A stretch of 64,000 nt of DNA, taken from assembly GCA_016182385.1 (NCBI GenBank), contig JACPGV010000007.1, forward strand, positions 12,147 to 76,146, read 5' to 3'. Shown here piece after piece: positions 30,245 to 53,322 of the stretch. Each line of letters begins with the position of its first letter. Position 1 is the stretch's first letter. The notes below the pieces were generated by a model. The model had not been told where the DNA came from. It saw nothing but the letters and a program-made list of their open reading frames with translations, and searched no databases. Position numbers and translations under genes: made by a program. The DNA is from Candidatus Moraniibacteriota bacterium (GTDB taxonomy: Bacteria; Patescibacteriota; Minisyncoccia; Moranbacterales; UBA1568).

Positions 30245-30864
30245 AAAATTTCCAAATTACGTAGATCGGCAAACGATTCGATATTGATATTGTTCGGCGC
30301 GTGCACCGGGTCGATATTTACCAAAAGATGCACTCTTATCAAACGAACACTCTCCACGGCAACTGGCGTCGCGAGTGGGTTGTTTACCGTATCACCGGGA
30401 TAATTTTCATTATAAAAATAAAATACCGGGTCACTGTTTTCATTGACGATAAAATTGGCAAGTACCGTCACCGTATCATCAGAGGCAGGGTACGAAACAG
30501 GACTGGCACCTGTCGGATTGGTAACACCCATCTTAAACTGGTCGTTTGCCAAATCAAGAAAATAATGCACGCGCTCCACCACGCCATCATCATCAATATC
30601 GATATACACTTTCAAATCAAAGTCATCGCCCGATTCAACAGGAAAATCTCCATTATCCGCTTGTCGCACGCTTCGTAAAGTAGCAACAACATCATTTGTT
30701 GCCCGAGATGCGATACTCGAGGCCATTCCTTCCTCCAAGATAAACTTGTTATTATCCCAACTTCTCAAAAAAAGAAGTGTGAAACCTTCCATCGCAATGA
30801 GTGAAATACCCACCGCGATCAACATCTCCATAAGACTCATCCCTTTTCGTGTTCTAGTAATCAT
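30241..30864 (-). CDS. type IV pilin-like protein (minor pilin or pseudopilin)
   Basis: Class III signal peptide RKG|MSLMEMLIAVGI with Glu at +5. Confidence 0.65.
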   Translation of the reverse strand: MITRTRKGMSLMEMLIAVGISLIAMEGFTLLFLRSWDNNKFILEEGMASSIASRATNDVVATLRSVRQADNGDFPVESGDDFDLKVYIDIDDDGVVERVHYFLDLANDQFKMGVTNPTGASPVSYPASDDTVTVLANFIVNENSDPVFYFYNENYPGDTVNNPLATPVAVESVRLIRVHLLVNIDPVHAPNNINIESFADLRNLEIL

Positions 30865-30874
30865 AGGACAAAAA

Positions 30875-32248: not shown

Positions 32249-32270
32249 CCTCCTTATGCTTGCCATAAAA

Positions 32271-33491
32271 TTATTTGATATTTTCCAATACACTATACAT
32301 CGGCTGGAGCATCGCTACGGCAAAAAATCCGACCGATCCTCCGATAAGAAGCATAAGAATCGGTTCAATGATAGAAGACATGTTTTTGGTGATCTGTGAA
32401 ACTTCTTCTTCGTAAAACTCAGCCAAACGCTGAAGTACTGTTTCTGTTTTTCCCGTTTCCTCTCCCACTTCGAGAATCTGTGGCACGAGTATGGGAAAAA
32501 TGCGAGGATATTTGGAAATAATTTTACTGAGCTCGACACCTTTTTGGATTTCCGCCATAGCATCAGCGAGAGCGTCTTTGTAATACACGTTACTCAGTGT
32601 TTTGGAGACGATTGTCAAAGCGCTAATGACGGAAATACCACTTTTCAAAAGTGAACTATAAATACGAGCAAAACGGGCGCAATTTACTTTAACAACGATA
32701 TTACCAATGATAGGCATATAAATAAACAATAAACCAAAAAAACGCTTGCCAAAAGCCGTGCCGGAAAATATCTTGATCCCAAAGAGAAATCCCACGACAA
32801 CCAATACGCTTATGATGGCATGATTACGAAGAAAATCACTCAAGGCGATAATAAAAAGAGTTGTGGCCGGCAACTGCACCCCCATTTCACCGAAAACACC
32901 GGTGATTTTTGGTAAAATATATGTCAACATCAAAATAGCGATAGCTACCATTGCCAACAAAATCACTGCCGGATAAATAAGCGCGCCACGCACCTTGGAA
33001 AGAAGATCGTGTTCCTTTTCCAATTGAAGCGCCAAAATATCGAGCACTTCTTCAAGATTGCCGCTTACTTCGCCAACACTCACCATATTCACAAAGAGCT
33101 CGCTGAAAACCGATGGGTACTTGGCCAGTCCTTCAGAAAGAGTCTTGCCAGCCTGCACATCGTCATAAACACTGAGAAGAATCTTGTTAAATCGTTTATT
33201 TTTTGTCTGGAAACTGAGATTATGAACGGCTCGCGATACGGTAAGGCCAGACGACACCATAACCGAAAGGTTGCGCGTAAAAATCATTTTTTCCTTAAGC
33301 GGGACTGTGGCAAAACGATCAAAAAATTTGATATCAAGAGATGATGCCGCTTCCAATTCGCGATGTGATGTAAGCAACAACCCCTGCGCCCGCAAATCTT
33401 GCGCCAGTGTTTTCTCGTCTTTTGCTTCCATCTCACCGCCGGATGTTTCTCCGGTAGAGATATTTTTTGCCGTATACAAAAACTTCGGCAT
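32271..33491 (-). CDS. pilC: type IV pilus inner-membrane platform protein (GspF family)
   Basis: Duplicated GspF domains. Start placed at MPKFLYTAKNISTGE. Confidence 0.9.
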   Translation of the reverse strand: MPKFLYTAKNISTGETSGGEMEAKDEKTLAQDLRAQGLLLTSHRELEAASSLDIKFFDRFATVPLKEKMIFTRNLSVMVSSGLTVSRAVHNLSFQTKNKRFNKILLSVYDDVQAGKTLSEGLAKYPSVFSELFVNMVSVGEVSGNLEEVLDILALQLEKEHDLLSKVRGALIYPAVILLAMVAIAILMLTYILPKITGVFGEMGVQLPATTLFIIALSDFLRNHAIISVLVVVGFLFGIKIFSGTAFGKRFFGLLFIYMPIIGNIVVKVNCARFARIYSSLLKSGISVISALTIVSKTLSNVYYKDALADAMAEIQKGVELSKIISKYPRIFPILVPQILEVGEETGKTETVLQRLAEFYEEEVSQITKNMSSIIEPILMLLIGGSVGFFAVAMLQPMYSVLENIK

Positions 33492-33604
33492 AGCCAAAAT
33501 GTATTTTGGTTTTATACTCTTATAATAACACAAAACGCATTTTTCGTCTTTCTTGTTTTGATGAACCTCTTCTTCAGCGCCAAGCAAAAATCTCCTTGGC
33601 TCAC

Positions 33605-33625
33605 AAAACCAACGGCCGTGGTTTT
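33605..33625. repeat. palindromic motif AAAACCAACGGCCGTGGTTTT (copy 1)
   Basis: Near-identical to the perfect palindrome at 51779-51810. Both are intergenic and flanked by A and T runs. Confidence 0.5.
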
Positions 33626-33744
33626 TGGGAGCGAACACTGATTTATACTCTTTAACAAGAGAACATAACGAAAGAAGGTTTTGAAAAAATTATTTTCCCT
33701 GATTTTTTACTATATCACGAATATCTTCCACTCTCTCAAAGGGT

Positions 33745-34674
33745 TCAAATGCTGAGACGGGACTTAAATTTTTCAAATACTTTCGGTCCGCGAGGACAGG
33801 GTAAAAAAATCAGTGCGCGATCATTCGCCTCAATCAAGCTTCCCGAAAGATGCGTTTTGGGGTTACGTTCTATTTTCCGTTTCTGCCAGGAAGCAAGCCA
33901 TTGTTCTTTATCCACATTGTTACACATTCGCTCCAATATCGATTGTATCCGCCGAAAAACACTTGAATCCGCAAGTGTCCAAAAACTCGGCACCAGAGAC
34001 AATTCGAAATTCGGTCGAAACTCCCGAATCCAGAAATTTTTTAATTCAAACTTCTGAAATAAGCCTTGGTTCATCAAAGGGATAAAAAACCGGTATTCAT
34101 GAGCGGAAAAAAAATCCTTCGTGCCAATTTCCAGGTTATTCTCCGTTACAAAATAATTAAGACACACCCGATCCTTTATTTTTTTTCCATGTCGACGTTT
34201 ACCAAGAACATGCAAAAATCCGGTAAGAAGCGTCCGCCCGGTCCAAATCCTACCACTTCGTAAAACAACAAACATATCCCAATCACTTCCCTGATCACCG
34301 TTCTTCATCGCAAGGCTTCCCGTGGCTCCGATCATCCTCACATAAGGCACCATACGTAATATTTTTACTAGAAAATGCATCCGCTTCAATTTGGAAACGG
34401 ACGTTTTTTCCGCCTGAATGCGTGCCGCCACCAAAAAACCGCGTCCCCGCAAAAAATAAAACCCATTGTACGTATCTATTCGAGATACTAACTGTTCCGA
34501 AGTAAGCATGGCAGATACCGCGCCGAGCGTACACGGCTGATCACACAAACGATGTGCCGGCGACCACGACATCAAATGCTTCCATATTTCAAATGCGGTC
34601 AACGGAAAACCCAGAACGTCGTAATACGTAATGGTGGCAAGGATATTTTTTCCCAACTGGTAGGACCCGTGCAT
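33745..34674 (-). CDS. hypothetical protein with a Pol-beta-like nucleotidyltransferase motif
   Basis: IGATGSLAMKNGDQGSDWDMFVV fits the GS-X10-DxD pattern. Confidence 0.35.
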   Translation of the reverse strand: MHGSYQLGKNILATITYYDVLGFPLTAFEIWKHLMSWSPAHRLCDQPCTLGAVSAMLTSEQLVSRIDTYNGFYFLRGRGFLVAARIQAEKTSVSKLKRMHFLVKILRMVPYVRMIGATGSLAMKNGDQGSDWDMFVVLRSGRIWTGRTLLTGFLHVLGKRRHGKKIKDRVCLNYFVTENNLEIGTKDFFSAHEYRFFIPLMNQGLFQKFELKNFWIREFRPNFELSLVPSFWTLADSSVFRRIQSILERMCNNVDKEQWLASWQKRKIERNPKTHLSGSLIEANDRALIFLPCPRGPKVFEKFKSRLSI

Positions 34675-34710: not shown

Positions 34711-37524
34711 TTACAGGTATTTTGCCGTAAAACTTTTCTTGCATGTTTTCAGTTTCTCCGGATGTCCAGAAAAAATCATCTCCCCGCCACTTTCGCCACC
34801 ATCTGGTCCAAGTTCCAATACCCAATCCGCCGCGCGAATAACATCAATGTTGTGTTCTACCACAAGCACGCTGTTTCCTTTATCAACAAGCGCTTCCAAA
34901 ACTTCCAAAAGTCGACGTACATCCTCAAAATGCAATCCGATCGTCGGTTCATCAAGAATATACAGCGTCTTACCGGTCGACTTCCGCGCCAATTCGGTTG
35001 CCAATTTGATACGTTGAGCCTCACCGCCGGAAAGATTGGTTGCCGATTGTCCAAGCACCAAATATCCGAGACCTACCTCATCCAATACGCGAAGTTTCTC
35101 CTCAATCATCGGCTGATCGAGAAAAAACGATCGCGCTTCTGTAACTGTCATTCGGAGCACTTGAGCAATATTCGTTCCACGATATTCAATAGAAAGTGTT
35201 TTTTGATTATAACGCGTTCCCTGACACACTTCACACGGCACATAAACATCAGGCAAAAGATACATTTCTATTTTTTTCAAGCCCCCACCCTGACAAGCCT
35301 CGCACCGACCACCACGCATATTGAAACTGAAATGACTGGCAGAGTATTTTTCTCGTTCCGCTTCTCCTGTCGCCGCAAACAAATCACGGATAAGGCTAAA
35401 AACTCCCGTATAGGTCGCCGCATTAGAACGCGGTGTACGGCCGATCGGGTCTTGATTGACGGAAATAACTTTATCGATATTTCCTAGTCCTTCAATTTTC
35501 TTATATTTCCCCGGCTCCGCCTTGGCATGATAGAAATGTTTGGCAAGCGCACGCGACAAAATATCATGAACGAGACTTGATTTTCCCGATCCAGAAACAC
35601 CAGAAACCGCCACCAACATACCAAGCGGAATTTTCACGTCTATATTTTTCAAATTATGCTCTTTTGCTCCATAGATAGTGATGGCTTCTTTCCCTAACGC
35701 GCGCGCCTTCTTTTTTTCGGACACTTTGCGCTTACCAGAAAGGTATTGTCCCGTAAGCAGAGTAGAGCGCAACAATTTGTCCGGCGTACCAGAAAAAATA
35801 ATTTCACCGCCCTCGCTCCCCGCTCCCGGGCCAAGATCGATAATATAATCCGCCCGTCGCATAATGGCAACATCATGCTCGACAATAACCAGCGAGTTAT
35901 TAGCAGCACGCAAATCCTCCAACGCGTGAATAAGTTTTTCCGTATCACGACTATGAAGGCCCACCGACGGCTCATCAAGAACATAAATAATACCCGACAA
36001 ACCAGACTTCATCTGTACCGACAAACGAATACGTTGAGCCTCGCCACCAGAAAGCGTGTCAGCACTGCGAGAAAGTTCCAAATATCCCAAACCCACTTTT
36101 TCCACGGCGCGCATCCGTGTCTCCATCTCACGAAATAAGGGGTCAACCATGTCCTTTTCCCCTTCTTTCAAAAGTTTTTCTTTCAAAGGTTTCAACGCGA
36201 TAAGAAATTTTTCCACACTCAACGAAACCACTTCATGAAGTGATACGCCGTTTACCAATACCGCGAGAGAAGATTTTTTTAATCGCTTCCCCTCGCAGGC
36301 AGGACAAAGTTTCGTCAGCATATAGGCCTCAATCTCCGCCCGCAGATGATCAGATTTTGTCTCACGATATTTCCGTTCAAGTAAACTGATAACACCAGGA
36401 AAAGCATCCTCTCTCTTCTCTTCTTCACCAAACACGATTGAACGATACTGTTTTGACGATAATTTTTTTATGGGAACATCAAGAGAAAATCTCTGTCGAC
36501 GACTCAAATCACGCAGCCACTGCATCGGACCATGACTGGCTTGTCGGTCGCTATTCATTTTACTCCACGGTCGAATGGCCCCCTCGGCGATTGAAAGGTT
36601 TTTATTCGGAATGATAAGTTCCGGATCAAATTCAAGCGTCACGCCAAGACCGGCACATTTCTCACACGCGCCTTCAGGGCTATTGAAAGAAAAATGACTC
36701 GGCGTAAGCTCGGGAACACCAAGACCACACTCCTCACATCGATATTCTTCATTATAGACGCGTTCTTCCCCGCTTCCATTCACGCGCAAAAAAAGCGTAC
36801 CGCTTCCGACACGAAAAGCCGTTTGCAAAGAATCAATAATGCGCTCCTTATCCGGTCGCGCCAAATCAATAGTCAAACGATCAACGATAACCCCGATATT
36901 GGAAATCTCCGTAGCGGATGCACGTGCCAAAGCTTCAGCCAAAGGAAGAACCTCTCCGTGAAACAAAACACGCACATATCCCCACGCATTCACCAAAGAA
37001 AGTGCTTCCCGTTCAGTTTTTTCTTCCAACGTTTTGCTGTAAGCCAAAAAAATAAGCGGCGTGTTATCAGGAAACGTCAAAAGTTCCTCCAAAATCGCGC
37101 GCACACTTTTTCGTTTGAGCGGTTTGGCGCAAGTAGGACAATGCGGATGTCCCATCTTGGCATACAGAATACGCAAATAATCATACACTTCTGTCATTGT
37201 TCCAACGGTCGAACGCGGGCTTTTGGAAACACTTTTTTGATCAATGGAAATAGCCGGGGAAAGATTATGAATAGCGTCAACTTCCGGCTTCTCAAAACCA
37301 TCAAGAAAATTCCGCGCATACGAAGAAAGCGACTCGACGTATCGTCGATTCGCCTCCGCAAACAATGTATCAAAGGCCAGTGAAGATTTTCCCGATCCGG
37401 AAAGACCCGTCACGACAACGAGCGAATCACGCGGAATATCAACATCCACGTTTTTCAAATTATTCACTCGTGCACCTCTAATTTCAATCACTGATTTTTT
37501 GCCTGGCATAGGGCCACCGCTCAT
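34711..37524 (-). CDS. uvrA: excinuclease ABC subunit A
   Basis: 937 aa. Tandem ABC ATPase modules, LSGGE and Walker motifs, zinc modules. Confidence 0.95.
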
Positions 37525-37584
37525 TCCTACAAAAAGATACGATTGCTTTCCAGCATACTCTCTTTTTCACGTGCTGTAAAGCCG

Positions 37585-38844
37585 TCACCTCGCCGTCAAA
37601 AATTCCTTGTCCCGACGATGACGATGATACGCGATAGCAAAACGATGCGCCTCGCTATTCGCAAGCATGATACTTTCACGGAAATGAGCAAGTTCAACCG
37701 GAAGACCAATAATATCTTTTGGCCGATGATGTTTATCCTTCACGACACCAACCAAAAGAGGAAGCGTCCCACTTTGTGAAAATAATTTTTCCGCTACCTG
37801 ACGTTGCAACCACGCGCCGTCCGTCACCACGATATCAGGCATCCGCCATCGCGTATGTGTCAATCTCCGCCGGACAATTTCTTCCAACGCGGACAAATCA
37901 TTTCCCCGATGATTTTCCCGCAAACGAAACTTTCTGTATTCCTCCTTATTCTCTTTGCCGTTCTCAACGACTGTCATGACCCCAACGCTCGCCTCTCCTT
38001 GCAAGTGTGCCACATCAAAAGCCTCAATACGCACTCCCCAGCGTTTCTCCTCTGTCACCTCTTGATCCTGTCCTTTTATGAGAGCCACGTCCTGAATGTG
38101 TTCCAAAGCAAATACCGTTTTCTTTATCTCTCCCGCTCGTTCAAAATCAAGCTTCTTGGCCGCTTCTCGCATTTCACGTTGCAATTTTTTTATGATAGCT
38201 ATTTTATGTCCTTCAAAAAACAAACGAATATGAGTCACCGTTTGCCCATAGTCGCGCGCGGATACTTCTCCCACGCACACCCCAGGGCAAAGTCCGATCT
38301 GCGCGGAAAAACATTTTTTCGAATTCGGAACACACTTATCACGATACGGGAAAATCTTACGAATGATTTTCATTGCCTCGCGAAGCTGCGTCCCATGCGG
38401 AAATGGTCCAAAAATATATTTGACCGGATCGGTAAATTTTTTCTGTTCGATATCCCGACCACGAACAATAAGTATTCGCGGGAATTTTTCCTTAGTAATG
38501 ATTACATGATTATAGCTTTTGTCATCTTTGGCATCAGTATTATAAGGTGGTTGATATTTTTTGATGAGGCTGGTTTCGAGAATGAGCGCTTCAATGACCG
38601 AATCGGTTTCATGATAGCCGATGGCTCGCACACCCTCAAGCATCCGTGCGATTTTCGGCCCACGTGTTTCCATGATATCGGCTGAAAAATAACTTCTCAC
38701 CCGATCACGCAACACTGTTGCTTTACCGATATAGAGCACTTCTTGTTTCGCTCCCAAGAAAAAATACACTCCCGGAGTTTCCGGTAATGTGTTTTTCTTA
38801 CGAAACGTCGCCAATAATATTTTCTTTTTCCAAGGAAAAGACAT
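37585..38844 (-). CDS. uvrC: excinuclease ABC subunit C; lacks the C-terminal (HhH)2 domain
   Basis: GIY-YIG domain (GVYFF...YIGKA), UvrBC-interaction region and RNase H-like domain (IEAFDVAHLQG). Start placed at MSFPWKKK. Confidence 0.85.
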   Translation of the reverse strand: MSFPWKKKILLATFRKKNTLPETPGVYFFLGAKQEVLYIGKATVLRDRVRSYFSADIMETRGPKIARMLEGVRAIGYHETDSVIEALILETSLIKKYQPPYNTDAKDDKSYNHVIITKEKFPRILIVRGRDIEQKKFTDPVKYIFGPFPHGTQLREAMKIIRKIFPYRDKCVPNSKKCFSAQIGLCPGVCVGEVSARDYGQTVTHIRLFFEGHKIAIIKKLQREMREAAKKLDFERAGEIKKTVFALEHIQDVALIKGQDQEVTEEKRWGVRIEAFDVAHLQGEASVGVMTVVENGKENKEEYRKFRLRENHRGNDLSALEEIVRRRLTHTRWRMPDIVVTDGAWLQRQVAEKLFSQSGTLPLLVGVVKDKHHRPKDIIGLPVELAHFRESIMLANSEAHRFAIAYHRHRRDKEFLTAR

Positions 38845-38896
38845 AAGTAAAAACATTGAAACACTTCCCCAATAGAAAAGCAACTTTTGGCTCTCC

Positions 38897-38930
38897 TGTT
38901 GACTTTTTTTCATTTTGGATGTACAATATA
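38897..38930 (+). promoter_or_regulatory. promoter TTGACT-18-TACAAT
   Basis: Near-consensus hexamers upstream of the 38956 ORF, with a GAGGAG Shine-Dalgarno. Confidence 0.45.
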
Positions 38931-38955
38931 AGAAGTTCATTTTGAGGAGACTCAA

Positions 38956-39213
38956 ATGGAAGTTTCCGATATCTCCAAGCACGTTTTTTCACGCATGGGG
39001 GTACCAAGAAGTTTCTCCCTGGAAGCTTTTCAAAAAGCCTTCAGGGAAGAATTAAGAGCGAGGGGGCTTGGAAAAGACCTTGCTCAATATCGGTACCTTT
39101 TCGGACAAGTGGTCCGAAAGGTAAAGGGGTTTGTAAAAAAACCCCCAAAGAACCTTCCCGAGATACGGAAGGTACCCGATTTCAAAAGGTTAGCCGCTAA
39201 CGACTGCGACTAA
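38956..39213 (+). CDS. small basic ORF (85 aa), or the 5' part of a structured RNA
   Basis: Good promoter and SD, but the coding region is packed with strong hairpins. No family recognised. Confidence 0.3.
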   Translation: MEVSDISKHVFSRMGVPRSFSLEAFQKAFREELRARGLGKDLAQYRYLFGQVVRKVKGFVKKPPKNLPEIRKVPDFKRLAANDCD

Positions 39214-39353
39214 CCAAAACACAAATCCCCGGCCCAAAGGCCTTTCCGGTTTTTCTCCTGTCGTCGGAAACGCCTTATCCCCTGTGGCAGTTCCCCTGCT
39301 GTCGGGCCGGGTCTTCGATGCTAGTGCGCAATGCGTGCTGGCATCTTTTTTTA
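39214..39353 (+). ncRNA. candidate structured RNA segment or 3' UTR
   Basis: GC-rich. The long-range pairing ccccggccc / gggccggg encloses nested hairpins, and the terminator follows directly. Confidence 0.25.
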
Positions 39354-39380
39354 TAAAAAAAGAAGAACGATAGATATCGT
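39354..39380 (+). terminator. intrinsic terminator
   Basis: agaacgata-gat-atcgttct hairpin followed by a T-run. Confidence 0.55.
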
Positions 39381-39389
39381 TCTTTTTCT

Positions 39390-39722
39390 TCAAGTAAGCG
39401 TGAGAGGAGTCAAGACACCTCTTGATTCCGCTCGTCGCAAGAAGAAGCGGCACTCGAAAGTTTTTCCAAAGCGTTTCCGTACTTCCTGCATATACCGCAC
39501 CAACTCAAATGGAGCAATAAAAACGTTTCGTTCCTGTCCATGACGATCATACGCTGTTATTCCTCCTTTTTTCCCGAGCTGTCGTTCCATGAAACGCCTT
39601 GCTTCCAACGTGCACGGCTCAATAAAAAGCGTATATGATGATTGCGGTACCACTGTAGTTTTATTTCGAGGGAAAAATGGAATAACGTTCATTCTTTTCT
39701 CCTTCCTTTTTCTCTTCATCAA
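39390..39722 (-). CDS. hypothetical protein
   Basis: ORF only. No motif recognised. Confidence 0.3.
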   Translation of the reverse strand: MMKRKRKEKRMNVIPFFPRNKTTVVPQSSYTLFIEPCTLEARRFMERQLGKKGGITAYDRHGQERNVFIAPFELVRYMQEVRKRFGKTFECRFFLRRAESRGVLTPLTLT

Positions 39723-39854
39723 TAAAGTACTGCCCTCTCGATCACATCGAAAAAAGTAAGAATTAAATCATTAAACACTCCTTCATGATCTCCTCCACAG
39801 GGTAAAGAACGACCTTCAGGATAACGCTCTTCCTTTTTTTCGTCAATAATACGA

Positions 39855-42455
39855 TTATCTCGTAAGGTGTCGAGATAAAACCCGTTTCAAGTACCGCCCC
39901 GTATGCGAAAGTGCATTCTTCGCCACTTCTTCAGGTGTACCGGAAGCGACAATTTTTCCGCCACCCACTCCTCCCTCAGGACCAATGTCAATAATGTAGT
40001 CAGCCGATTTGATAAGATCCATATTGTGTTCGATAACTAGTACCGTGTTTCCTTTGACCACTAACGTCATAAGAATCTCAATCAATTTCCGCACATCTTC
40101 ATAATGCAGTCCGATCGTCGGTTCATCCAAAAGGTACACCGTGCGCTCAAGCATCGGCCGATACAATTCCGAAGCGATTTTAACACGTTGCGCTTCGCCG
40201 CCGGACAAAGTGGTCGCCGATTGACCAAGTTTCAGATATCCCAACCCGACTTCATTCAGCGTCTTCAAACGATCTGCTATCGCCGGAATATCGGAAAAAA
40301 ATGAAAAGGCTTCCTCAATGGTCATTTCGAGCACTTGATAAATATTCTTCTGTTTGTATTTCACCTCGAGAGTTTCCTTGGTAAAACGCTTTCCATCACA
40401 CACATCACACGGCACGTACACCGTCGGAAGAAAATGCATCTCCACGGCAAGAAATCCATTCCCCTCACATGTCTCGCAACGGCCACCGGGACGATTGAAA
40501 GAAAATCTTCCCACTTTCCAGCCGCGCACTCGCGCCTCTTCCGTCGAAGCAAACAAATCGCGAATATGCGTAAAAGCGCCGGTATACGTCGCCGGATTGG
40601 ATCGTGGCGTCCGACCAATCGGGCTCTGATCGATAAGCACCGCGCGCGACAGATACTCGCTCCCAACAAACGATTGACAATGAAAAACTTCGTTCGAACG
40701 ATAACGACGATCAAAGCGCGCTTGCAAATTTTTATAAACAATTTCGTACAGAAACGTCGATTTTCCTGATCCGGAGACGCCAGTAATAGCCACCAGACGA
40801 CCAAGCGGGATATCAACATTCAAATGAGCTATATTGAACAATCGCGCGCCACGAATTTTTATCGTCCCCTTCTCCTTGCTTCGGCGCGTTACTGGCACAG
40901 AAACCATCTCTTCGCCACGCAAATACCCCAGCGTGAGCGAACGAGAGTGATTTTTTTCCGCCATAAGCAATTCATCAAGGTATCCCGAAACAACCACGTT
41001 TCCGCCATGCACGCCGGCGCCGGGACCAATATCGACAATATAATCGGAAGCGTAAATAGTATCCTCATCATGTTCGACAATGATGATAGTATTGCCAAGA
41101 TCACGAAGCGATTGCAGTGTTTCGATCAAGCGTTCATTATCACGCTGATGCAAACCAATCGTCGGTTCATCAAGAACATAAAGTGCTCCAACCAACTGCG
41201 AACCGAGCTGACTCGCCAAACGAATACGCTGAGCCTCGCCGCCCGAAAGCGTGTTGGCGCGACGATCGAGTGTGAGATACGTCAGACCAACATTCAAAAG
41301 AAATGTAAGTCGCGCGCCAATCTCACGCAAAACAACCGCCGCGATCTGTTCTTCACGCTCAGAAAGCGTCAAAGTTTCGAAGAACGCGCTGGCTTCCTCA
41401 ATGGTCATCATGGAAAGCTCGACGATATTTTTTCCCCCGATACGGATATGCAACGCTTCCTCACGTAATCGCGACCCATGACACTCCCCGCATGGTTCAT
41501 CGCCAAAAAAATGTTTGGTACCAAGACCATTACACGCCGTGCACGCGCCGTACGGTGAATTAAAAGAAAAAAGTCGAGGTTCCACCTCCGGATAAGAAAA
41601 CCCATCATATGGACAAGAAAACTTCGAGGAAAGAACAAACGATTCTTTCCCGATACGAACAGTCACCAGACCACCGCTTTCTTCAAGCGCTCGTTCGACT
41701 GCCTCAGACAATCGTTCTCTCGATGTCTCGGGAAATTTCTCAAACTCCTCAAGTGTCATTTCATCAACGAGAAGATCGATGTCATGTTTCTTGTTTTTTG
41801 AAAGAAGAATTTGCTCTCGTAAACTTTTACGAACGCCGTCGAGAAATATTTCAGCAAACCCGTTGTGCAAAGCGTTGTACAAAAGTTGATAGTATTCCCC
41901 CTTTCGGCCGCGAACGACCGGCGCGGCAATGACGAGGGTTTCCGCCACTTTCTTTTTTCCTTTTTTCGGAAACGCCGCGCGAACACGTTCAGCGACAAGC
42001 AAAAGCATTTCTTCCGTCGACAATTTTTGTATTTCACGATCACACAGCAAACAATGCGGCCGACCAAGACGAGCATAGAACACTCGCAAATAATCATAGA
42101 TCTCCGTCACCGTCGCCACCGTCGAACGCGGATTCCGGCTGGCTGACTTTTGATCAATAGAAATAGCCGGCGACAAACCGACAATCTCATCGACATCGGG
42201 CTTTTGCATGGTATTCAAAAATTGTCGCGCGTACGCAGAAAGAGATTCGACGTATCGTCGTTGTCCTTCGGCAAAAATGGTGTCAAAAGCAAGAGAAGAC
42301 TTTCCCGATCCGGAAAGACCGGTAAACACTATCATCTTGTTTCGCGGCATGCGAACGGTAATATTTTTCAAGTTGTGCGTTCGTGCGCCGCGTACCTCAA
42401 TCCATTCACTGGGATCAATTTTTTTACGGCTAGAACGCTTCTGTTTCAAAAGCAT
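39855..42455 (-). CDS. UvrA paralog (second excinuclease ABC subunit A-like protein)
   Basis: [34 protein letters not shown] and two ABC modules. About 866 aa, shorter than the first uvrA. Confidence 0.9.
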   Translation of the reverse strand: MLLKQKRSSRKKIDPSEWIEVRGARTHNLKNITVRMPRNKMIVFTGLSGSGKSSLAFDTIFAEGQRRYVESLSAYARQFLNTMQKPDVDEIVGLSPAISIDQKSASRNPRSTVATVTEIYDYLRVFYARLGRPHCLLCDREIQKLSTEEMLLLVAERVRAAFPKKGKKKVAETLVIAAPVVRGRKGEYYQLLYNALHNGFAEIFLDGVRKSLREQILLSKNKKHDIDLLVDEMTLEEFEKFPETSRERLSEAVERALEESGGLVTVRIGKESFVLSSKFSCPYDGFSYPEVEPRLFSFNSPYGACTACNGLGTKHFFGDEPCGECHGSRLREEALHIRIGGKNIVELSMMTIEEASAFFETLTLSEREEQIAAVVLREIGARLTFLLNVGLTYLTLDRRANTLSGGEAQRIRLASQLGSQLVGALYVLDEPTIGLHQRDNERLIETLQSLRDLGNTIIIVEHDEDTIYASDYIVDIGPGAGVHGGNVVVSGYLDELLMAEKNHSRSLTLGYLRGEEMVSVPVTRRSKEKGTIKIRGARLFNIAHLNVDIPLGRLVAITGVSGSGKSTFLYEIVYKNLQARFDRRYRSNEVFHCQSFVGSEYLSRAVLIDQSPIGRTPRSNPATYTGAFTHIRDLFASTEEARVRGWKVGRFSFNRPGGRCETCEGNGFLAVEMHFLPTVYVPCDVCDGKRFTKETLEVKYKQKNIYQVLEMTIEEAFSFFSDIPAIADRLKTLNEVGLGYLKLGQSATTLSGGEAQRVKIASELYRPMLERTVYLLDEPTIGLHYEDVRKLIEILMTLVVKGNTVLVIEHNMDLIKSADYIIDIGPEGGVGGGKIVASGTPEEVAKNALSHTGRYLKRVLSRHLTR

Positions 42456-42502
42456 AGAATGACCCTTACGAATGGTCAGTATAGCCCAAAGAGAAGAAAG
42501 AA

Positions 42503-43201
42503 TCAAAGATATTCAAGAAGAGCACGATATTCGTCCTCCCGTTCCGGATGCACGACAAGCTCAATGGGACCCTGAGGGACCTGTTTGGCAAATGCGTTGA
42601 AATCACCAAACCAATCAAAGCTGACAAGATAATCGGATGTTGGCACCGGTTGTTTTTCATATGATGTCTTTGTTTGCTTCCAAAGAAAAGACAAAATATT
42701 TCCTACCAAAGCGCTATGCATATCGGTAAGCATACCCTTCTTTCCGAAACGCACATAACCAATATCATAACGTTTGGCGAGACCAAGAAAAACACGAAAA
42801 AATTTCGGAAAATGATGCACATATTCGTGCGAATTCAAACCATCCGGATATCGTCGGAAGAGTTCGTGAAAACGCTCTATCTGATCCCGCCATTCCGTTT
42901 CCACTTTTTTCGCGGTTAATAATCCAAAAAAATATCGCCACAAAAAGTTCGCTCCGCGCAAAAACGTATTTTCATGCATCTTATATCCGCGCTTGAGCAA
43001 TCCAATAAGCTCAAGATGAAGATCGATTTTTACACCGGTGGCCAGCAATGCTTCGGCCTGTTCGTGAGAAACATAATGAATAAGCACGGACACGCGATCA
43101 ATTTTTCCCTCACGCACCAAACGCAAAATGGGTTCCGCCGTTTGACGGATCCCATAATCATCAGCAACAACGACAAACCTCTCCCGCGTATCTTCTGTCA
43201 T
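42503..43201 (-). CDS. ChbG/YdjC-family carbohydrate deacetylase
   Basis: FVVVADDYGI N-terminal motif of the YdjC family. Confidence 0.7.
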   Translation of the reverse strand: MTEDTRERFVVVADDYGIRQTAEPILRLVREGKIDRVSVLIHYVSHEQAEALLATGVKIDLHLELIGLLKRGYKMHENTFLRGANFLWRYFFGLLTAKKVETEWRDQIERFHELFRRYPDGLNSHEYVHHFPKFFRVFLGLAKRYDIGYVRFGKKGMLTDMHSALVGNILSFLWKQTKTSYEKQPVPTSDYLVSFDWFGDFNAFAKQVPQGPIELVVHPEREDEYRALLEYL

Positions 43202-43310
43202 AGCGGAAACAGCTTTTCTATTACCAAACTATTGTGACAAAAAAATATAAAAAAGACAAGAAAAAATCACCAAAAAATACCATTTGCTTTTTTTTCCTCC
43301 ACCGAGTATT

Positions 43311-43922
43311 ATGTGTTCTGGTCCTTTGAAAGGAGAAAAAGCCGTGAATAAAAGACCGTTGCAAGCCTACGCCGCCATCATGGCGGCTCGCAAAGCTGAA
43401 ACAAGTGATCAGTGCGATCCCTTTACCATACGGGGAGGAACCGAAGAAAAAGATTTTCGGAATCAGATACTCGAATCTTCCCTCACGCCGGTCCAGCTCA
43501 TTATCGCAGAAAACGTCAGCCAAGCACGGGAAAACACCGACCATCTCATGAGCCACGCCCTCCCTGATGGAGGAGGATACCGCAATCAAATTTTTTCTCT
43601 CTCGGATATTTCAAAAAAAATTGACCTCTACCTCAGAACATTGAATGATCCATCTGGAAAAAGAAAACTTTTTTACCTTATCGGCGGATGGATATTTTTT
43701 CAACGAAGTGGAAATCTCTTGTCGGAAAAAAGGCTTCTGGTACAAAGTAGTGTCGGATACTGCCCGGAGGAAGCCGTGGCTGATTTCCTCACTCGCTTTC
43801 ATCATCTCATCGGCATGAAACACGTATTTCAAAACGGATATATCCTCCAATACCAAGAGGTTTCCGTGGAAAGACTTATGACCGACTATATTTCTCTCGT
43901 TCCTTTTGCCGTATGTCACTAA
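43311..43922 (+). CDS. hypothetical protein
   Basis: Plus-strand ORF ending at a bidirectional terminator. Confidence 0.4.
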   Translation: MCSGPLKGEKAVNKRPLQAYAAIMAARKAETSDQCDPFTIRGGTEEKDFRNQILESSLTPVQLIIAENVSQARENTDHLMSHALPDGGGYRNQIFSLSDISKKIDLYLRTLNDPSGKRKLFYLIGGWIFFQRSGNLLSEKRLLVQSSVGYCPEEAVADFLTRFHHLIGMKHVFQNGYILQYQEVSVERLMTDYISLVPFAVCH

Positions 43923-43960
43923 AAACCCCACTCCTCGGAGCGGGGTTTTCTTTTGCTAAA
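43923..43960. terminator. bidirectional terminator between convergent genes
   Basis: aaaaccccactcctcggagcggggtttt hairpin flanked by A and T runs. Confidence 0.45.
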
Positions 43961-43973
43961 AACCTCTCCTCTC

Positions 43974-44822
43974 TCAGTCCTCTTCTTCCGTTCCAAAAAC
44001 CTTTTTCAGCTCTTCACGAGCGGTTTTCATTGTTGCACGAAAATCATCAAACGCTTTTTTTACAGTTGTTCGACGCGTTTCTGCCAATTTTTTCACCTGC
44101 TCGCCGATTTTATCCGCGCTCTGTCGTTCGCTTATAAGCGTTTCGCGAGCAGTGGCCAAATCTTGTTTAAATGTTGATCGAATCGTTTCTGGATCAGCAC
44201 CGTCTTCACAACTTTTTTTCGCTTTTTCGAGAGCAGTTTCTACGGCCTCTTCAAATTTTTTCACCGCGCTCTCCATATCACCTTTCCGACCAACGAGAGC
44301 GGCATCCACACCATCACGAAAAGCCTGAATAGCAGCATCAACCGCCGCACGTCTCGTTTCAACGGCTTTTTCCGCCGTCTCCTGAAAAAGGGCTACAGCA
44401 GCTTTTTCTTCATCAGTATCGGCGCGAGCCTCCAAAGCAGCGTACATCGCCTTACGTCGTTCATCTCCTAAAGAACGCTTCTCATCAAGTTTCTCCTCAC
44501 GATCCTCGCGTTTATCCTCCATTTTACTTGTCCGCTCACTTTTTCGTTCTTCGAACTTCGATCGCCGTTCGGAAAGATTACTTGCTATTTTTTCTGCATG
44601 TTCAGTAAAACGATCACAAAAAGCCTCCTGTCGTTTTTCTTTCATTTCCGCAAGCTTCTCTTCACGTTTTGCTTTCCATTCCTCTGCTTTGGCCTCACGC
44701 TTCTCCTGTCGCTCTTCTGCCTTTGTTTGTTCGTCCGAAGATTCATTGGCAAAAACGCCGACTGGCACAATAAACGAAACAATCACGAATACGCCCACGA
44801 TAATTTTTGTTTTCATATTCAT
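43974..44822 (-). CDS. secreted, highly charged (E/K/R-rich) coiled-coil protein
   Basis: Signal peptide followed by long charged helical repeats. Confidence 0.5.
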   Translation of the reverse strand: MNMKTKIIVGVFVIVSFIVPVGVFANESSDEQTKAEERQEKREAKAEEWKAKREEKLAEMKEKRQEAFCDRFTEHAEKIASNLSERRSKFEERKSERTSKMEDKREDREEKLDEKRSLGDERRKAMYAALEARADTDEEKAAVALFQETAEKAVETRRAAVDAAIQAFRDGVDAALVGRKGDMESAVKKFEEAVETALEKAKKSCEDGADPETIRSTFKQDLATARETLISERQSADKIGEQVKKLAETRRTTVKKAFDDFRATMKTAREELKKVFGTEEED

Positions 44823-44824
44823 AG

Positions 44825-45172
44825 TTAATAATTCTTTTCGTCGTATGTTGTACCAAACTGAACAACGCTTTGACTATCCGATTCTATATCCTCAAGCTCA
44901 GTCCGTTCCTCATCAAAAAGAGCTTCCTCATCAAGAGAGGTTTCCGCGGTAATCTCCACAGTGATATCATCAACGGAAGATGGCACGACGACCATCTCTT
45001 TCCCTGGTGACTTTTTATCAAGTGGTAAAGGTTTTTTTTGAACAACTGTTCGCTCTTCTCCCGGAGTATATTTTTGATCCGCAAACTGACGATACACGGT
45101 CACCAAAACGAGACCGAGCACGATCACTCCAAGCAAAATCACAAGAATGTGTTTATAGGATATCGATTGCAT
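44825..45172 (-). CDS. small membrane-anchored protein, hypothetical
   Basis: N-terminal TM helix and an acidic C-terminus. Confidence 0.4.
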   Translation of the reverse strand: MQSISYKHILVILLGVIVLGLVLVTVYRQFADQKYTPGEERTVVQKKPLPLDKKSPGKEMVVVPSSVDDITVEITAETSLDEEALFDEERTELEDIESDSQSVVQFGTTYDEKNY

Positions 45173-45231
45173 GATAATTATTTATTTTACTTTTTACTTT
45201 CTTCTATTATACCACATTTCAAAAAATCTTG

Positions 45232-45260
45232 CATTGACATCTTTGTTCCCAAAGAGTACG
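45232..45260 (+). promoter_or_regulatory. candidate promoter TTGACA-17-TACGAT
   Basis: Hexamers upstream of the 45301 ORF. Confidence 0.4.
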
Positions 45261-45300
45261 ATGGCAACATCTTGTTCATTCGAAAAAGAAAGGATTCGCC

Positions 45301-45681
45301 ATGTCATGCGTATTACTGCACAAACCGGCACGTCCGGTGGCGTTTATCGTGAGCATCCACATCATTCCCTCAAAAAAAGCATTTTCTTCTTTCCCGAGAC
45401 TCCTTCCAAAGAGAAGTGTCGTCCGACTTTTCAGGGAAGTTATTTCCGCCGAACAAGAAAGTGAGGCTATTCAAGAAGCGCTCAGTCTTTTTTTTGCAGG
45501 GTATCGACCCCTCAAAGGACTTCCGCCAACGACCAAAAATCTTCCAGACTACATGTACGTTGACCCTGTTCCTTTGTACGCGCACGAACTGGAAAGAACA
45601 CTTTCCGGCTTTGTCAGGATATCTAAAGAGCGCTACGACGAAACGCGCGCGCTCCTCAAAAAAATTTCCGAGATGTCATAA
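45301..45681 (+). CDS. hypothetical protein (126 aa)
   Basis: A plus-strand island among minus-strand genes, with its own promoter, an AAGGA Shine-Dalgarno and a terminator. Confidence 0.4.
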   Translation: MSCVLLHKPARPVAFIVSIHIIPSKKAFSSFPRLLPKRSVVRLFREVISAEQESEAIQEALSLFFAGYRPLKGLPPTTKNLPDYMYVDPVPLYAHELERTLSGFVRISKERYDETRALLKKISEMS

Positions 45682-45696
45682 TCTCATCCGTATTCA

Positions 45697-45720
45697 AGTC
45701 CGCTCGTCGGACTTTTTTTC
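45697..45720 (+). terminator. intrinsic terminator
   Basis: agtccg-ctcgt-cggact followed by TTTTTTT. Confidence 0.55.
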
Positions 45721-45798
45721 TTGACAACCGCCATCACGCAACAACCAAAAACACGATTTCTGATCACAATTGTTTCGAAGAATTTTTTAAAAAAATAT

Positions 45799-47871
45799 TT
45801 ACGATTTTTTATTTTCCCGACGTTTTTTCGGAAAACTCTTCGATTCCAAAACGCGTATCTCGTCACGCAAAATCGCCGCCGTTTCAAAATCCAGCACTTT
45901 CACCGCCGCTCGCATTTCTCGCTCCTTAAGACGAATAAGTTTCGCCGGGTCACGCGCGAAAACTTCTTGATCAAGCAAAACATTGGCGCGTACCGCTTTG
46001 TCATGTTCACTTTCCAGCGATTCCGTAATATCGTGGATATTTTTCTTAATGGTTTGCGGTGTAATGTGATGTTTCTCATTATATGCCATCTGAAGTGCGC
46101 GCCGCCGATTGGTTTCATCAAGGGCAAAACGTATCGATCCGGTCATACTCTCGGCATACAGAATAACTCTTCCTTTTACATTACGTGCTGCCCGACCAAT
46201 GATCTGAATAAGCGATGTCTCCGAACGCAAAAAACCCTCCTTGTCCGCGTCAAGAATACCGATAAAGGATACTTCCGGTAAATCAAGGCCTTCTCGCAAC
46301 AAATTCACACCAACCAGACAATCAAACACCCCTTTGCGAAACGCCGTCAAAATCTTGATGCGATCAATCGTTTTGATGTCACTATGCAGGTACTCGGCTC
46401 GTATACCTTTCTCCTTCAAATAATGACTCAGGTCTTCCGCCATTTTTTTGGTGAGTGTCGTAGCAATAACGCGCCCTCTCTCTTCTTTGTTTTTCACCGT
46501 ATCTTTTTTGATTTCTTTTTCCGCTTCACGGATGAAATCTCCAATCTGTCCCGGGTACCCTTCTTTTTCATGAATCGGCCTTACCTCCACAAGCGGATCA
46601 ATAAGTCCCGTCGGGCGAATAACTTGTTCGACAATATTCTTGCTTATTTCACGTTCATATTCATTTGGTGTCGCGGATGTAAAAATAATTGGCCCCACTC
46701 GATCAAAAAATTCCTCAAAGCGAAGCGGCCGGTTATCAAGCGCGCTCGGCAAACGAAAACCATATTCAACAAGGGTTTTCTTACGCGACTGATCACCGGC
46801 ATACATACCGCGAAGTTGAGGCAACGTAACATGTGATTCGTCAACAATGGTAAGAAAGTCAGAACTTCCATCAGCCATATGAGGAAAATATGAAAGTAGC
46901 GTCTCCGGTGGATCGCCCGGTTTTTTTCCTGAAAGATGTCGGGAATAATTTTCGATCCCATTGCAGTAACCGATTTCTTTCATCATCGCGAGATCATAGT
47001 TCGTACGGCGTTTCAAACGTTCCGCTTCAAGAATCTTTCCCTCCGTCGCAAGCGTTTCCAAACGCTCGCCGAGCTCATGGCGAATCGAAGAGAGTGCCCG
47101 CTCTTGTTTCTTTTTATCCGTAACAAAGTGTTTGGCGGGAAACAAAAACACCGCCTTTGGAGTATCAAGTATTTTCTGTGATACTGGATCGATCTTGGTA
47201 ATAGCGTCCAATCGTCCATTATTCATCTCCAAAAGATACGTGATTTTTTCCGACACTGGCATCACCTCGATACGATTACCAAGACTGCGAAATTTCCCGG
47301 GACCGAGATCGGCATTGGTACGTTCGAAAAAGATGGCCACCAGTCGATGCAACAACTCCGTCCGCGTAAGTCGCATACCAATCTCCAGTCGCATATTTTC
47401 CTTTTCATATTCCTCCGGACTCCCCAAACCATAAATACAAGATACCGATGCGACAATAATCACGTCGCGGCGCGTAAGAAGTGACTGCGTGGAAGCATGC
47501 CGCAGACGATCTATTTCTTCATTGATCTGCGCGTCTTTTTCAATGTAAGTATCCGTCATGGGCAAATATGCTTCCGGTTGATAATAATCATAATACGAAA
47601 CAAAATAATGCACGGCCGCGTCAGGAAAAAACTCTTGATATTCCTGCGCCAACTGAGCGGCAAGCGTCTTGTTGTGCGCGATGACAAGTGCCGGCCTCTC
47701 TCCCGATGCGATAACATTCGCGGCGGTAAAAGTTTTTCCCGATCCTGTCACGCCAAGGAGCGTTTGAAAACGCTTCTTCTCGTTCAGCCCTTGGCAAAGC
47801 GAGCGAATAGCTCGCGGCTGATCACCGGTTGGTTGATATTTTGATTGAAGATGAAAAAGAGACATGGGCAT
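45799..47871 (-). CDS. uvrB: excinuclease ABC subunit B
   Basis: Helicase motifs (GVTGSGKTFT), the beta-hairpin region and the C-terminal UvrBC-interaction domain. Confidence 0.95.
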   Translation of the reverse strand: MPMSLFHLQSKYQPTGDQPRAIRSLCQGLNEKKRFQTLLGVTGSGKTFTAANVIASGERPALVIAHNKTLAAQLAQEYQEFFPDAAVHYFVSYYDYYQPEAYLPMTDTYIEKDAQINEEIDRLRHASTQSLLTRRDVIIVASVSCIYGLGSPEEYEKENMRLEIGMRLTRTELLHRLVAIFFERTNADLGPGKFRSLGNRIEVMPVSEKITYLLEMNNGRLDAITKIDPVSQKILDTPKAVFLFPAKHFVTDKKKQERALSSIRHELGERLETLATEGKILEAERLKRRTNYDLAMMKEIGYCNGIENYSRHLSGKKPGDPPETLLSYFPHMADGSSDFLTIVDESHVTLPQLRGMYAGDQSRKKTLVEYGFRLPSALDNRPLRFEEFFDRVGPIIFTSATPNEYEREISKNIVEQVIRPTGLIDPLVEVRPIHEKEGYPGQIGDFIREAEKEIKKDTVKNKEERGRVIATTLTKKMAEDLSHYLKEKGIRAEYLHSDIKTIDRIKILTAFRKGVFDCLVGVNLLREGLDLPEVSFIGILDADKEGFLRSETSLIQIIGRAARNVKGRVILYAESMTGSIRFALDETNRRRALQMAYNEKHHITPQTIKKNIHDITESLESEHDKAVRANVLLDQEVFARDPAKLIRLKEREMRAAVKVLDFETAAILRDEIRVLESKSFPKKRRENKKS

Positions 47872-48554
47872 TATAACCAGCGTTTCAAAAAAATACCGAC
47901 AGCGTTGATGAGTGATTGACCGGCACCACGATAGACATACAAAAAGAAAAGAAACGATACGATAATCACGCCAATCAATATATCTACATTGGGCTTGATG
48001 TGCTCTATGTCACGCCATATTTTCTGTACCGTACCGATGCCAGCATAACCGACATACAAATACGCGAAATCCTTAAAAAAATTACCAGCATACGTCGCGC
48101 AAAGAAATACCCGAATATCCATCTTGATGATTCCGGCGGCAAGCGACACCGGCGTCGTTGGAAACGGCGGTAATAATCGAAGAAGAAATAAAAGCCCCCC
48201 ATCTTTCCAATGATGACCGGTGAATCGTTTACCGAAACTCTCTATTTCTTCGTGACGAATTCCCAAATACTTCGTTATCGGTTTTACCAAAAGATCTTCA
48301 AGTGTATCACCCAAAAAATAATACAACCACGCGCCAAGCGTTTTACCAATATTGCCGAGAAGTGCCAAAAAGAAAAGATACCAGATGGTTTCTCCTTGCA
48401 TCAGTGCAAGTGATCCGGAAAGTCCCATAACGAGTGCTGCTGGAATGGGACTAATGACTTCCTCGAGAAACGATCCGACAAATACAAACACTTCAAGCGG
48501 CATGCTGGTCGCCAAAGCTTTCACATAATAATCAAATGTCTCCAAAGAATACAT
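47871..48554 (-). CDS. DedA/SNARE-associated family membrane protein
   Basis: DedA signature region GxxxGxxxP...LRLLPxFP. Confidence 0.85.
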   Translation of the reverse strand: MYSLETFDYYVKALATSMPLEVFVFVGSFLEEVISPIPAALVMGLSGSLALMQGETIWYLFFLALLGNIGKTLGAWLYYFLGDTLEDLLVKPITKYLGIRHEEIESFGKRFTGHHWKDGGLLFLLRLLPPFPTTPVSLAAGIIKMDIRVFLCATYAGNFFKDFAYLYVGYAGIGTVQKIWRDIEHIKPNVDILIGVIIVSFLFFLYVYRGAGQSLINAVGIFLKRWL

Positions 48555-52833: not shown

Positions 52834-53075
52834 ATCAACAATAAAATCAATCCCCTAAAAGGTCGAGGGACTTTTTAAAAAAACTTCCAGCAAGAGAGGT
52901 GTCTTTCCGAAAAACTCTGGGGACCAAACAAACCGATTCTGTTCCATAAAGAATGGAGGCGAAGACAAAACATACTGAGTCTCTCTCGCTTGGACAAACA
53001 AGCAACACAAGAAAAAATTGTTTATCAAACAGGAAGGGGACAACAAAAAAATCCCAAAAAAAACTTACACCTCAC

Positions 53076-53282
53076 CTAGCATGCAACACATTCGTACTTT
53101 TGACAAAACTCGTTGTTCGCGGCGACCGTTTCGGTAAAATGTTTCCGCGAATAATGCTCCGCCTTTTTCCCAATATTGAAATGCGATACCGGACGATGGT
53201 ATCCCATAACGCGCGTCCACACTTCGCAACGTGTTCGTTTGGCATTTACATCCTCCCCTTCTTTCATAATGTTTTCCGACAT
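53076..53282 (-). CDS. NrdD C-terminal glycyl-radical domain, encoded out of frame downstream of nrdD
   Basis: RTRCEVWTRVMGYHRPVSHFNIGKKAEHYSRKHF matches the class III RNR glycyl-radical signature (E. coli TRRVCGYLGSPDARPFNAGKQEEVKRRVKH). Confidence 0.55.
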   Translation of the reverse strand: MSENIMKEGEDVNAKRTRCEVWTRVMGYHRPVSHFNIGKKAEHYSRKHFTETVAANNEFCQKYECVAC

Positions 53283-53322
53283 AGGTATATGTTGGTTAGG
53301 TTGATTATTTTTTATTGAATAA

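Follow-up and report, generated by a model that had tools for sequence, protein, structure and literature searches.

The stretch of DNA analysed here (64,000 nucleotides (nt), referred to as the window) originates from Candidatus Moranbacteria, a lineage of the Patescibacteria or Candidate Phyla Radiation (CPR) within the Parcubacteria group (Paceibacteria in GTDB), and was found to possess genes for UvrB, UvrC and two different UvrA proteins of nucleotide excision repair (NER). It probably encodes a complete UvrABC set in the streamlined form of the Parcubacteria, consisting of UvrB, a short UvrC and a UvrA of 866 amino acids (aa) (UvrA2) without the insertion domain (ID) that has been treated as a hallmark of UvrA (PMC7835731, PMC3167621), plus an extra UvrA paralogue of 937 aa (UvrA1) in an accessory or specialised role. 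Of the two copies, UvrA2 has the more canonical sequence and is most likely the ordinary NER damage sensor and UvrB loader of the lineage. Architectures, residue states, distribution and synteny were read directly from the sequences, and from these we infer the activities of the proteins and the division of labour between them.

UvrA2 scored 1232.5 with the family model NF001503 (cut-off 1147) and its UvrB-binding domain was recognised by PF17760 (71 bits), with no match to the ID profile PF17755. When aligned with the UvrA of Bacillus stearothermophilus it covered chain positions 24–303 and 417–960, skipping positions 304–416, which constitute the ID. In an alignment of 108 sequences, 131 of its residues occupied columns assigned to the UvrB-binding domain, and only 1 fell within the 112 columns of the ID, the loss amounting to approximately 110 aa. 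The CxxC half-sites of zinc module 2 normally flank the ID; in UvrA2 the two are joined by 13 residues instead of the usual ~125 (junction sequence CTACNGLGTKHFFGDEPCGEC). The four cysteines of this junction (C305, C308, C322, and C325) were invariant among 40 sequences and the junction was identical in kind in all of 80 related loci.

Apart from the ID, little of what is associated with UvrA function is missing from this protein. On the basis of function-linked residues of Escherichia coli UvrA, including the UvrB-interface pair R216/E222 (taken from PMC3025350), UvrA2 was found to retain the Walker lysines K37 and K646, G502, R216, E222, R712, R722, R724, and R730, as well as the canonical motif of the UvrB-binding domain (APVVRGRKGEY), both ATPase sites, the signature motifs and zinc modules 2 and 3. 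Throughout the UvrA2 family (88 sequences) R216, G502, R712, R724 (as R, K or H) and R730 are kept without exception, R722 is R or K in 87, and E222 is present as E in 74, Q in nine and D in five. K37 and K646 are invariant in both the UvrA1 and the UvrA2 families, and the motif LSGGEAQR occurs twice in each protein. The core of UvrA2 shares 55–59% identity with the UvrAs of E. coli, Bacillus and Azospirillum, compared with 48–54% for UvrA1. An AlphaFold2 model of UvrA2 (predicted local distance difference test score, pLDDT, of 80.5) had as its top PDB match 3uwx_A, the UvrA chain of a UvrA-UvrB complex (template modelling score, TM, of 0.87).

The form without an ID is a feature shared well beyond the window. 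Related loci were sought in one genome from each GTDB species, and 80 were returned (numbered from L001) with 67–85% identity to UvrA2, all of them from the Parcubacteria/Paceibacteria group of the Patescibacteria (Moran-, Taylor-, Zambryski-, Lloyd-, Nomura-, and Adlerbacteria, among others). All 80 encode a UvrA with a UvrB-binding domain and without an ID, and this gene is mostly flanked by uvrB immediately upstream and uvrC immediately downstream, giving a compact uvrB-uvrA-uvrC arrangement. A further 240 protein clusters (120 + 120) carry PF17760 without PF17755 in every case. Clusters of the UvrA2 type number at least 120 and are 78–100% identical to the window protein. In a search of the representatives of the whole library, in which tandem double-UvrAs filled most of the top 150 places (ranked by total score) and which is no census of ID-less UvrAs, one single-module ID-less representative (P0350, 60% identity) fell outside the 50%-identity cluster of UvrA2. 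The best 120 relatives of P0350 all have PF17760 without PF17755 and are named as Harrison-, Wolfe-, Azam-, or Pacebacteria or as Parcubacteria. Neither a natural ID-less UvrA nor excision repair in the CPR was described in the literature searched, an older review which founded the UvrA classes lying outside that search. A natural, lineage-wide, single-module UvrA without an ID, paired with a doubly reduced UvrC, appears to be new.

The proteins predicted to act with UvrA2 are a canonical UvrB and this reduced UvrC. UvrB scored 944 with NF003673 (cut-off 743) and 928 with TIGR00631 (cut-off 750); Pfam matches (PF17757, PF12344, PF02151, and PF00271) indicate the helicase domains, the UvrA-interaction domain 2, the UvrB motif and the C-terminal UVR domain, and the gene is 60–83% identical to the uvrB upstream of uvrA in most related loci. 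UvrC (TIGR00194 score of 303, cut-off 285; PF01541, PF02151, and PF08459) likely starts at M47 (position 38844), which gives a protein of ~419 aa. Alignments showed that it keeps the GIY-YIG nuclease, the four-Cys region, the UVR motif and a catalytic RNase H domain in which the DDH triad is present. The protein ends where the RNase H domain of Thermotoga maritima UvrC (2nrt) ends, three residues past the RNase H alignment, and so has no (HhH)2 tail. Residues 255–393 and 552–610 of E. coli UvrC have no counterpart in it, and the central region of E. coli UvrC has been described as an inactive RNase H1-like domain (PMC10085695). The preliminary description of this DNA had noted a minimal UvrC without (HhH)2, which is correct, and the loss of the central RNase H1-like domain can be added to it. 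All 59 of the related uvrC genes examined stop 0–21 aa past the RNase H alignment, and the missing tail is a feature of the lineage. An engineered UvrC of Deinococcus radiodurans, UvrC-delta(HhH)2 (PMC10085695), likewise has no (HhH)2, with the two nuclease domains and the UvrB-binding motif in place; the loss in the window UvrC differs in being natural and lineage-wide and in extending to the central domain. The possibility that this gene encodes Cho was ruled out, as the C-terminal RNase H nuclease is present, unlike in E. coli Cho, and the NF007833 score was 58.8 (cut-off 367).

UvrA1 has the full class I architecture, with matches to both PF17760 (49 bits) and PF17755 (81 bits), 102 residues in the ID columns, three zinc modules, and an end-to-end alignment with Bacillus UvrA (2r6f) in a single stretch. 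Compared with class I UvrAs it has the same domain order, but its functional surface has diverged and its core is 47–54% identical to canonical UvrAs, a distance similar to that of class II proteins (48%). In the UvrA1 family (118 sequences) G502 is replaced by Lys or Arg in 117 (Lys in the window protein), the position of R722 is taken by Glu in 85 and by a basic residue in only six, that of R724 by Glu, Ala or Asp in 117, and that of R730 by His or Tyr in 113. Of the four groove arginines only R712 is kept in UvrA1, the other three positions being acidic or neutral, and basic residues occur instead at two neighbouring positions. E222 is replaced by Q, A, S or H and is not conserved, and the UvrB-binding domain has lost its RGRKGEH and KKH motifs. 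Within-family identity in this domain is 50–55% for UvrA1 compared with 65–66% for UvrA2, with that of the second ATPase module being equal (82 and 83%), which points to faster evolution of UvrA1's UvrB-binding domain. UvrA1-type clusters (at least 120, 67–100% identical to the window protein) and UvrA2 appear to be encoded on the same contigs across Moranbacteria, with 15 cluster pairs taken as sharing a contig because their longest contigs are equal in length. UvrA1 seems to be an old paralogue specific to Moranbacteria, and its role is most likely an accessory or specialised form of DNA sensing rather than that of main UvrB loader, performed either alone or in a heterodimer with UvrA2.

In the repair pathway proposed here, a UvrA2 dimer would bind and scan DNA by means of the signature-II groove and the zinc-3 hairpins, ATP-driven changes in its core would sense damage, UvrB would be loaded through the UvrB-binding domain, and the short UvrC would make the 3′ and 5′ cuts. 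Precedents for both reductions come from engineered proteins. E. coli UvrA delta290-400 and B. stearothermophilus UvrA with its ID deleted, which have lost the same segment as UvrA2 with the rest intact, incise a short damaged duplex as well as the wild type does; damage discrimination amid an excess of undamaged DNA is poorer, and global NER is hurt more than Mfd-coupled repair (PMC3025350). The deletion in UvrA2 differs from these in being natural, fixed and lineage-wide, with the zinc-2 half-sites connected through a conserved 13-residue linker. In the D. radiodurans UvrC-delta(HhH)2 dual incision is retained and the 5′ cut is weaker (PMC10085695). Since the engineered mutants behave in this manner, damage discrimination and 5′ incision in Moranbacteria would be expected to be less efficient than in E. 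coli, and very small genomes may tolerate such a loss of specificity.

Several observations weigh against the assignment of UvrA2 as the main sensor. A 2025 cryo-EM study places the IDs at the centre of DNA clamping, melting, base flipping and lesion hand-off to UvrB (PMC11985968), and if so, severe impairment should be expected of a UvrA without an ID; the emphasis of another study is on ATP-driven changes in the core, with the IDs described as mobile (PMC12796330). The fourth ligand of zinc module 1 is also altered in UvrA2, where residue 239 (the position of E. coli C256) is Asp and not Cys (C-x2-C … C-P-x-D), as it is in 88 of 88 ID-less UvrAs. UvrA1, for its part, passed NF001503 (1216.1 against the cut-off of 1147) and has retained R216, the two Walker A lysines, every zinc ligand (including four Cys in zinc module 1) and the conserved ID motifs, and in Moranbacteria it could be the sensor that matters more. 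The neighbour-joining trees have few reference sequences and no support values; the ID-less clade grouped with the E. coli, Bacillus, and Azospirillum references in one of them, and UvrA1 fell outside the canonical and ID-less group in both. Finally, the view of the related loci reached approximately 10 kb to each side of each uvrA, and a second, ID-bearing UvrA may be encoded elsewhere in the genomes from outside Moranbacteria.

Of the other readings, the one which survives best is that UvrA1 and UvrA2 form an asymmetric heterodimer, in which UvrA2 would provide the UvrB-binding domain and the groove and UvrA1 a single ID clamp, as an unfused counterpart of the tandem UvrAs. We regard this as possible, though on the unlikely side. 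The features of the paralogues are complementary, both are conserved together across Moranbacteria, and a division of labour between the two IDs of one dimer has been proposed (PMC11985968). Tandem double-UvrAs (1.6–2.3 thousand aa) were found in which the UvrB-binding domain and the ID are present in or absent from the modules in all combinations, where ID status was taken from the number of residues between the zinc-2 half-sites. A common pattern among them, seen in many tandem UvrAs, joins an ID-bearing module to one with 0–38 residues in place of the ID. Examples are P0242, P0243, P0250, P0259, P0307, P0274 (Verrucomicrobium sp. GAS474, WP_093288394.1), and P0271 (from a Planctomycetota metagenome-assembled genome, MAG), and MEW6747171.1 is an example from a Planctomycetota MAG. 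The idea of a heterodimer is kept alive because these proteins show that a "dimer" with a single ID would appear to be evolutionarily stable. The pair in the window resembles the tandem UvrAs (~1800 aa, NF001885) in having one module with little or no ID beside an ID-bearing one. However, the tandem UvrAs are single polypeptides, whereas the window UvrAs are separate proteins, with uvrC and a 1-kb gap between their genes and NF001885 scores of 615–626 against a cut-off of 3054.

Evidence against the heterodimer comes from the distribution of the two genes. Most Parcubacteria loci show only the ID-less UvrA, and therefore the UvrA2 type must at a minimum be capable of functioning as a homodimer. 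Only in a subclade (the window, L001, and L002) do the two uvrA genes lie close together, and elsewhere uvrA1 lies more than 10 kb away, beside pilus genes. Distance analysis placed neither paralogue close to the modules of the tandem UvrAs; as the ID-less modules of the latter are not close to the Parcubacteria protein, the ID has apparently been lost more than once, independently. A broader version of this idea would have Parcubacteria carry out NER without any ID, the sensor in Moranbacteria being split into a UvrA2/UvrA1 heterodimer with a re-charged UvrA1 groove, corresponding in unfused form to the tandem UvrAs of Planctomycetes and Verrucomicrobia, and with UvrA1 perhaps tied to pilus-mediated DNA uptake. 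We consider this version unlikely.

It is distinctly improbable that UvrA1 is the true NER sensor of Moranbacteria and that the ID-less UvrA2 is degenerate or auxiliary. In addition to the possession of all class I domains and the NF001503 result, this possibility has in its favour the position of uvrA1 directly downstream of uvrC in the window, L001, L002, and L088, and the stress laid on the ID in the literature (PMC11985968). However, it is UvrA2 that is conserved with uvrB and uvrC over all of the Parcubacteria loci, at 67–87% identity, and that keeps every functional residue tested. UvrA1 has Lys in place of G502, and the E. coli substitution G502D abolishes damage discrimination (PMC3025350); it has also lost E222 and most of the groove arginines, and its UvrB-binding domain seems to be the faster-evolving one. 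UvrA2 is thus preferred as the NER sensor and UvrA1 as the accessory protein.

The preliminary description had suggested that the 866-aa copy may be class II-like and have a different role, such as drug or lesion export or defence. What defines class II UvrAs is that they have no UvrB-binding domain (PMC5128194, PMC3167621, PMC10192343), and because UvrA2 possesses this domain it is not a class II protein. Two plasmid-borne class II references, one from Klebsiella (IncN) and one from Streptomyces, had 0 residues in the columns that belong to the UvrB-binding domain, and 108 and 118 in those of the ID, whereas UvrA1 and UvrA2 had 119–131 residues in the former (a Microbacterium plasmid uvrA was excluded from the alignment as split or frameshifted). 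Class II proteins such as D. radiodurans UvrA2 (2VF7), Ecm16 (7SH1) and DrrC do resemble the situation in the window in being UvrA paralogues beside a main UvrA. They are without the UvrB-binding domain and zinc module 1 and have the ID, so that the UvrA2 of the window is their mirror image, while UvrA1 has both domains and is like them in its overall divergence (48% core identity) and in having no Gly at position 502. With the class I proteins of E. coli, B. stearothermophilus (2R6F/3UWX) and Mycobacterium tuberculosis (3ZQJ), both window UvrAs share the ABC modules, signature motifs, zinc modules, UvrB-binding domain and NF001503 assignment, although the UvrB-binding domain of UvrA1 fits the class only weakly. 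UvrA2 is accordingly canonical for class I in its UvrB-binding domain, its residues and its family model, and departs from that class in its missing ID and in the Asp of zinc module 1.

A class II role for UvrA2 outside NER, for instance in drug or lesion tolerance or in defence, would fit with its being shorter than class I UvrAs and with a PADLOC match to mad3 (E = 1e-95), but is very improbable indeed. Class II proteins need the ID for DNA binding (PMC10192343), and the class II structures 2vf7 and 7sh1 fitted the UvrA2 model less well than class I structures. The mad3 match is confined to the second ABC module and is found in UvrA1 also (E = 1e-80), as is one to mad8, and no PADLOC model, including mad3 and mad8, matched any of three neighbouring open reading frames (ORFs) scanned. 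This similarity was regarded as generic and a role in MADS defence was rejected, as were the proposed export and drug roles in view of the domain architecture; it suggests that the mad3 and mad8 defence ATPases may be UvrA-derived half-proteins.

The two window UvrAs are 42–48% identical by BLASTP (47% over 805 core columns); they are thus not near-identical, and the earlier view of them as old, divergent and non-redundant proteins holds. A recent duplication or assembly artefact, suggested by nothing more than two uvrA genes inside 8 kb, has a practically negligible chance because of this divergence and the many orthologues of each copy (more than 100 orthologous clusters), with the arrangement also repeated in two independent genomes (L001 and L002) and no compositional anomaly seen.

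It is still debated how UvrA recognises damage, with ID-central (PMC11985968) and core-driven (PMC12796330) views and mixed results from deletion mutants (PMC3025350). The uvrB-uvrA-uvrC set of Parcubacteria represents a natural minimal system, with a UvrA without an ID and a UvrC without (HhH)2, and if it works, the ID and the (HhH)2 tail would be accessories and not part of the core of bacterial excision repair. The pair in Moranbacteria, together with the many tandem UvrAs, suggests that asymmetric sensors with a single clamp may be common, which is relevant to the division of labour that has been proposed between a "recognition-ID" and a "support-ID". The automatic name "excinuclease ABC subunit UvrA", given to all of these proteins, hides three architectures.

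The features of the region are listed below.

Table 1. Features around the excision repair genes (positions within the window)
Feature	Position	Strand	Details
dedA/VTT	47871–48554	-	PF09335; membrane protein gene
uvrB	45799–47871	-	690 aa; NF003673
Two conserved genes without family	44825–45172 and 43974–44822 (span 43974–45172)	-	115 aa and 282 aa, respectively; located between uvrB and ydjC
Poorly defined stretch	43202–43973		Between ydjC and the two conserved genes
ydjC-family gene	42503–43201	-	232 aa; PF04794, 87 bits
uvrA2 (866-aa copy)	39855–42455	-	ATG start; NF001503
ID-loss junction in uvrA2	41481–41543	-	CTACNGLGTKHFFGDEPCGEC; from translation and alignment
Spacer between uvrA2 and uvrC	38845–39854	.	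~1 kb; without conserved ORF
uvrC	37585–38844 (ORF to 38982)	-	~419 aa from M47
uvrA1 (937-aa copy)	34711–37524	-	NF001503
309-aa gene after uvrA1	33745–34674	-	Possible Pol-beta-type nucleotidyltransferase
Type IV pilus cluster	27689–33638	-	T2SSF 32271–33638, PilM 27689–28783

All genes from dedA to uvrA1 are encoded on the minus strand, in the order given by the preliminary description, which was verified from the ORFs and from their Pfam and NCBIfam identities. The overlap of dedA and uvrB was also confirmed and amounts to 1 nt, the TAA stop and the ATG start sharing one base (TAATG); the DedA/VTT gene is syntenic across the Moranbacteria loci. Translational coupling of ydjC and uvrA2, by contrast, would apply only if uvrA2 started at the TTG at 42506 (TTGA overlap), which would give a protein of 883 aa, and is doubtful. 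The ATG at 42455 is favoured; it lies 47 nt past the ydjC stop, has AAGGG in front of it, agrees with the N-termini of homologues and is the start used in the public annotation (866 aa, 100% coverage). The earlier observation that LexA boxes are missing stands, as Cheo-box and E. coli LexA-box patterns occurred at chance level only and matched upstream of none of the uvr genes, and SOS regulation was rejected. Base composition is even over the region, and no compositional sign of horizontal transfer was found for uvrA1.

The grouping of the repair genes had been called a supercluster, but it is a local juxtaposition found only in the window, L001, and L002, because the steadiest neighbours of uvrA1 are not repair genes but a gene of 308–309 aa and the pilus cluster. 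The former follows uvrA1 in every locus examined, among them the window, L001, L002, L086/L087, and L088/L089, with a spacing of 12–36 nt. In the window it encodes the motif GATGSLAMKNGDQGSDWDMFVV (GS...SDWD), which resembles that of Pol-beta-type nucleotidyltransferases; matches to PF18765 and PF01909 were weak (E ~0.06–0.08), with none in NCBIfam or PADLOC, and the protein may be an enzyme of this type. The pilus cluster downstream comprises T2SSF, a CarboxypepD_reg-domain protein, several genes without family, and PilM, and it remains syntenic with uvrA1 in distant Moranbacteria, in which uvrA1 and uvrA2 no longer lie close together. The gene upstream of uvrA1 varies, being uvrC in some loci and an Na/H exchanger in another.

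Between uvrB and uvrA2, the two conserved genes without family matched no entry at threshold in the family profile libraries, and their conservation in L002–L012 (tblastn, tblastx) is confined to Moranbacteria. The YdjC-family protein is 47–68% identical to the product of the gene upstream of uvrA2 in L001–L012 and is absent from the other related loci. No link of YdjC to repair is evident, and its position upstream of uvrA2 is held only in Moranbacteria. Within the poorly defined stretch, a plus-strand ORF of 212 aa (43284–43922, TTG start) had a tblastx match in L002, and the overlapping minus-strand ORFs (43221–43589 and 43611–43931) showed no conservation; the true gene here may lie on the plus strand.

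The spacer between uvrA2 and uvrC gave no blastn or tblastx match among the 80 related loci, no Rfam or tRNA match, and no Pfam match for its ORFs, and a hidden gene or RNA within it was rejected. It contains terminator-like hairpins at 39384–39363(-), 39146–39125(-), and 39317–39345(+) and probably separates two transcription units. The counterpart spacers in L001 and L002 are 1.3–1.4 kb long and have no similarity to it.

The surroundings within the window fit a CPR genome, with type IV pilus genes, an anaerobic ribonucleotide reductase, many ORFs without family and nearly one-stranded coding. An AAA+ ATPase of the MgsA/RarA type is encoded nearby at 19505–20767 (-), and the anaerobic ribonucleotide reductase NrdD with its radical-SAM activase at 52126–55440 (-). 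No Mfd is encoded within the window; a large ORF considered for this role (1141 aa, 56922–60347, -) proved to be a copper P-type ATPase with HMA, E1-E2 ATPase, and hydrolase domains. It has a C-terminal extension of ~400 aa with beta-propeller-like matches (DUF5074, YNCE) and adjoins cupredoxin and DsbD_2/HMA proteins.

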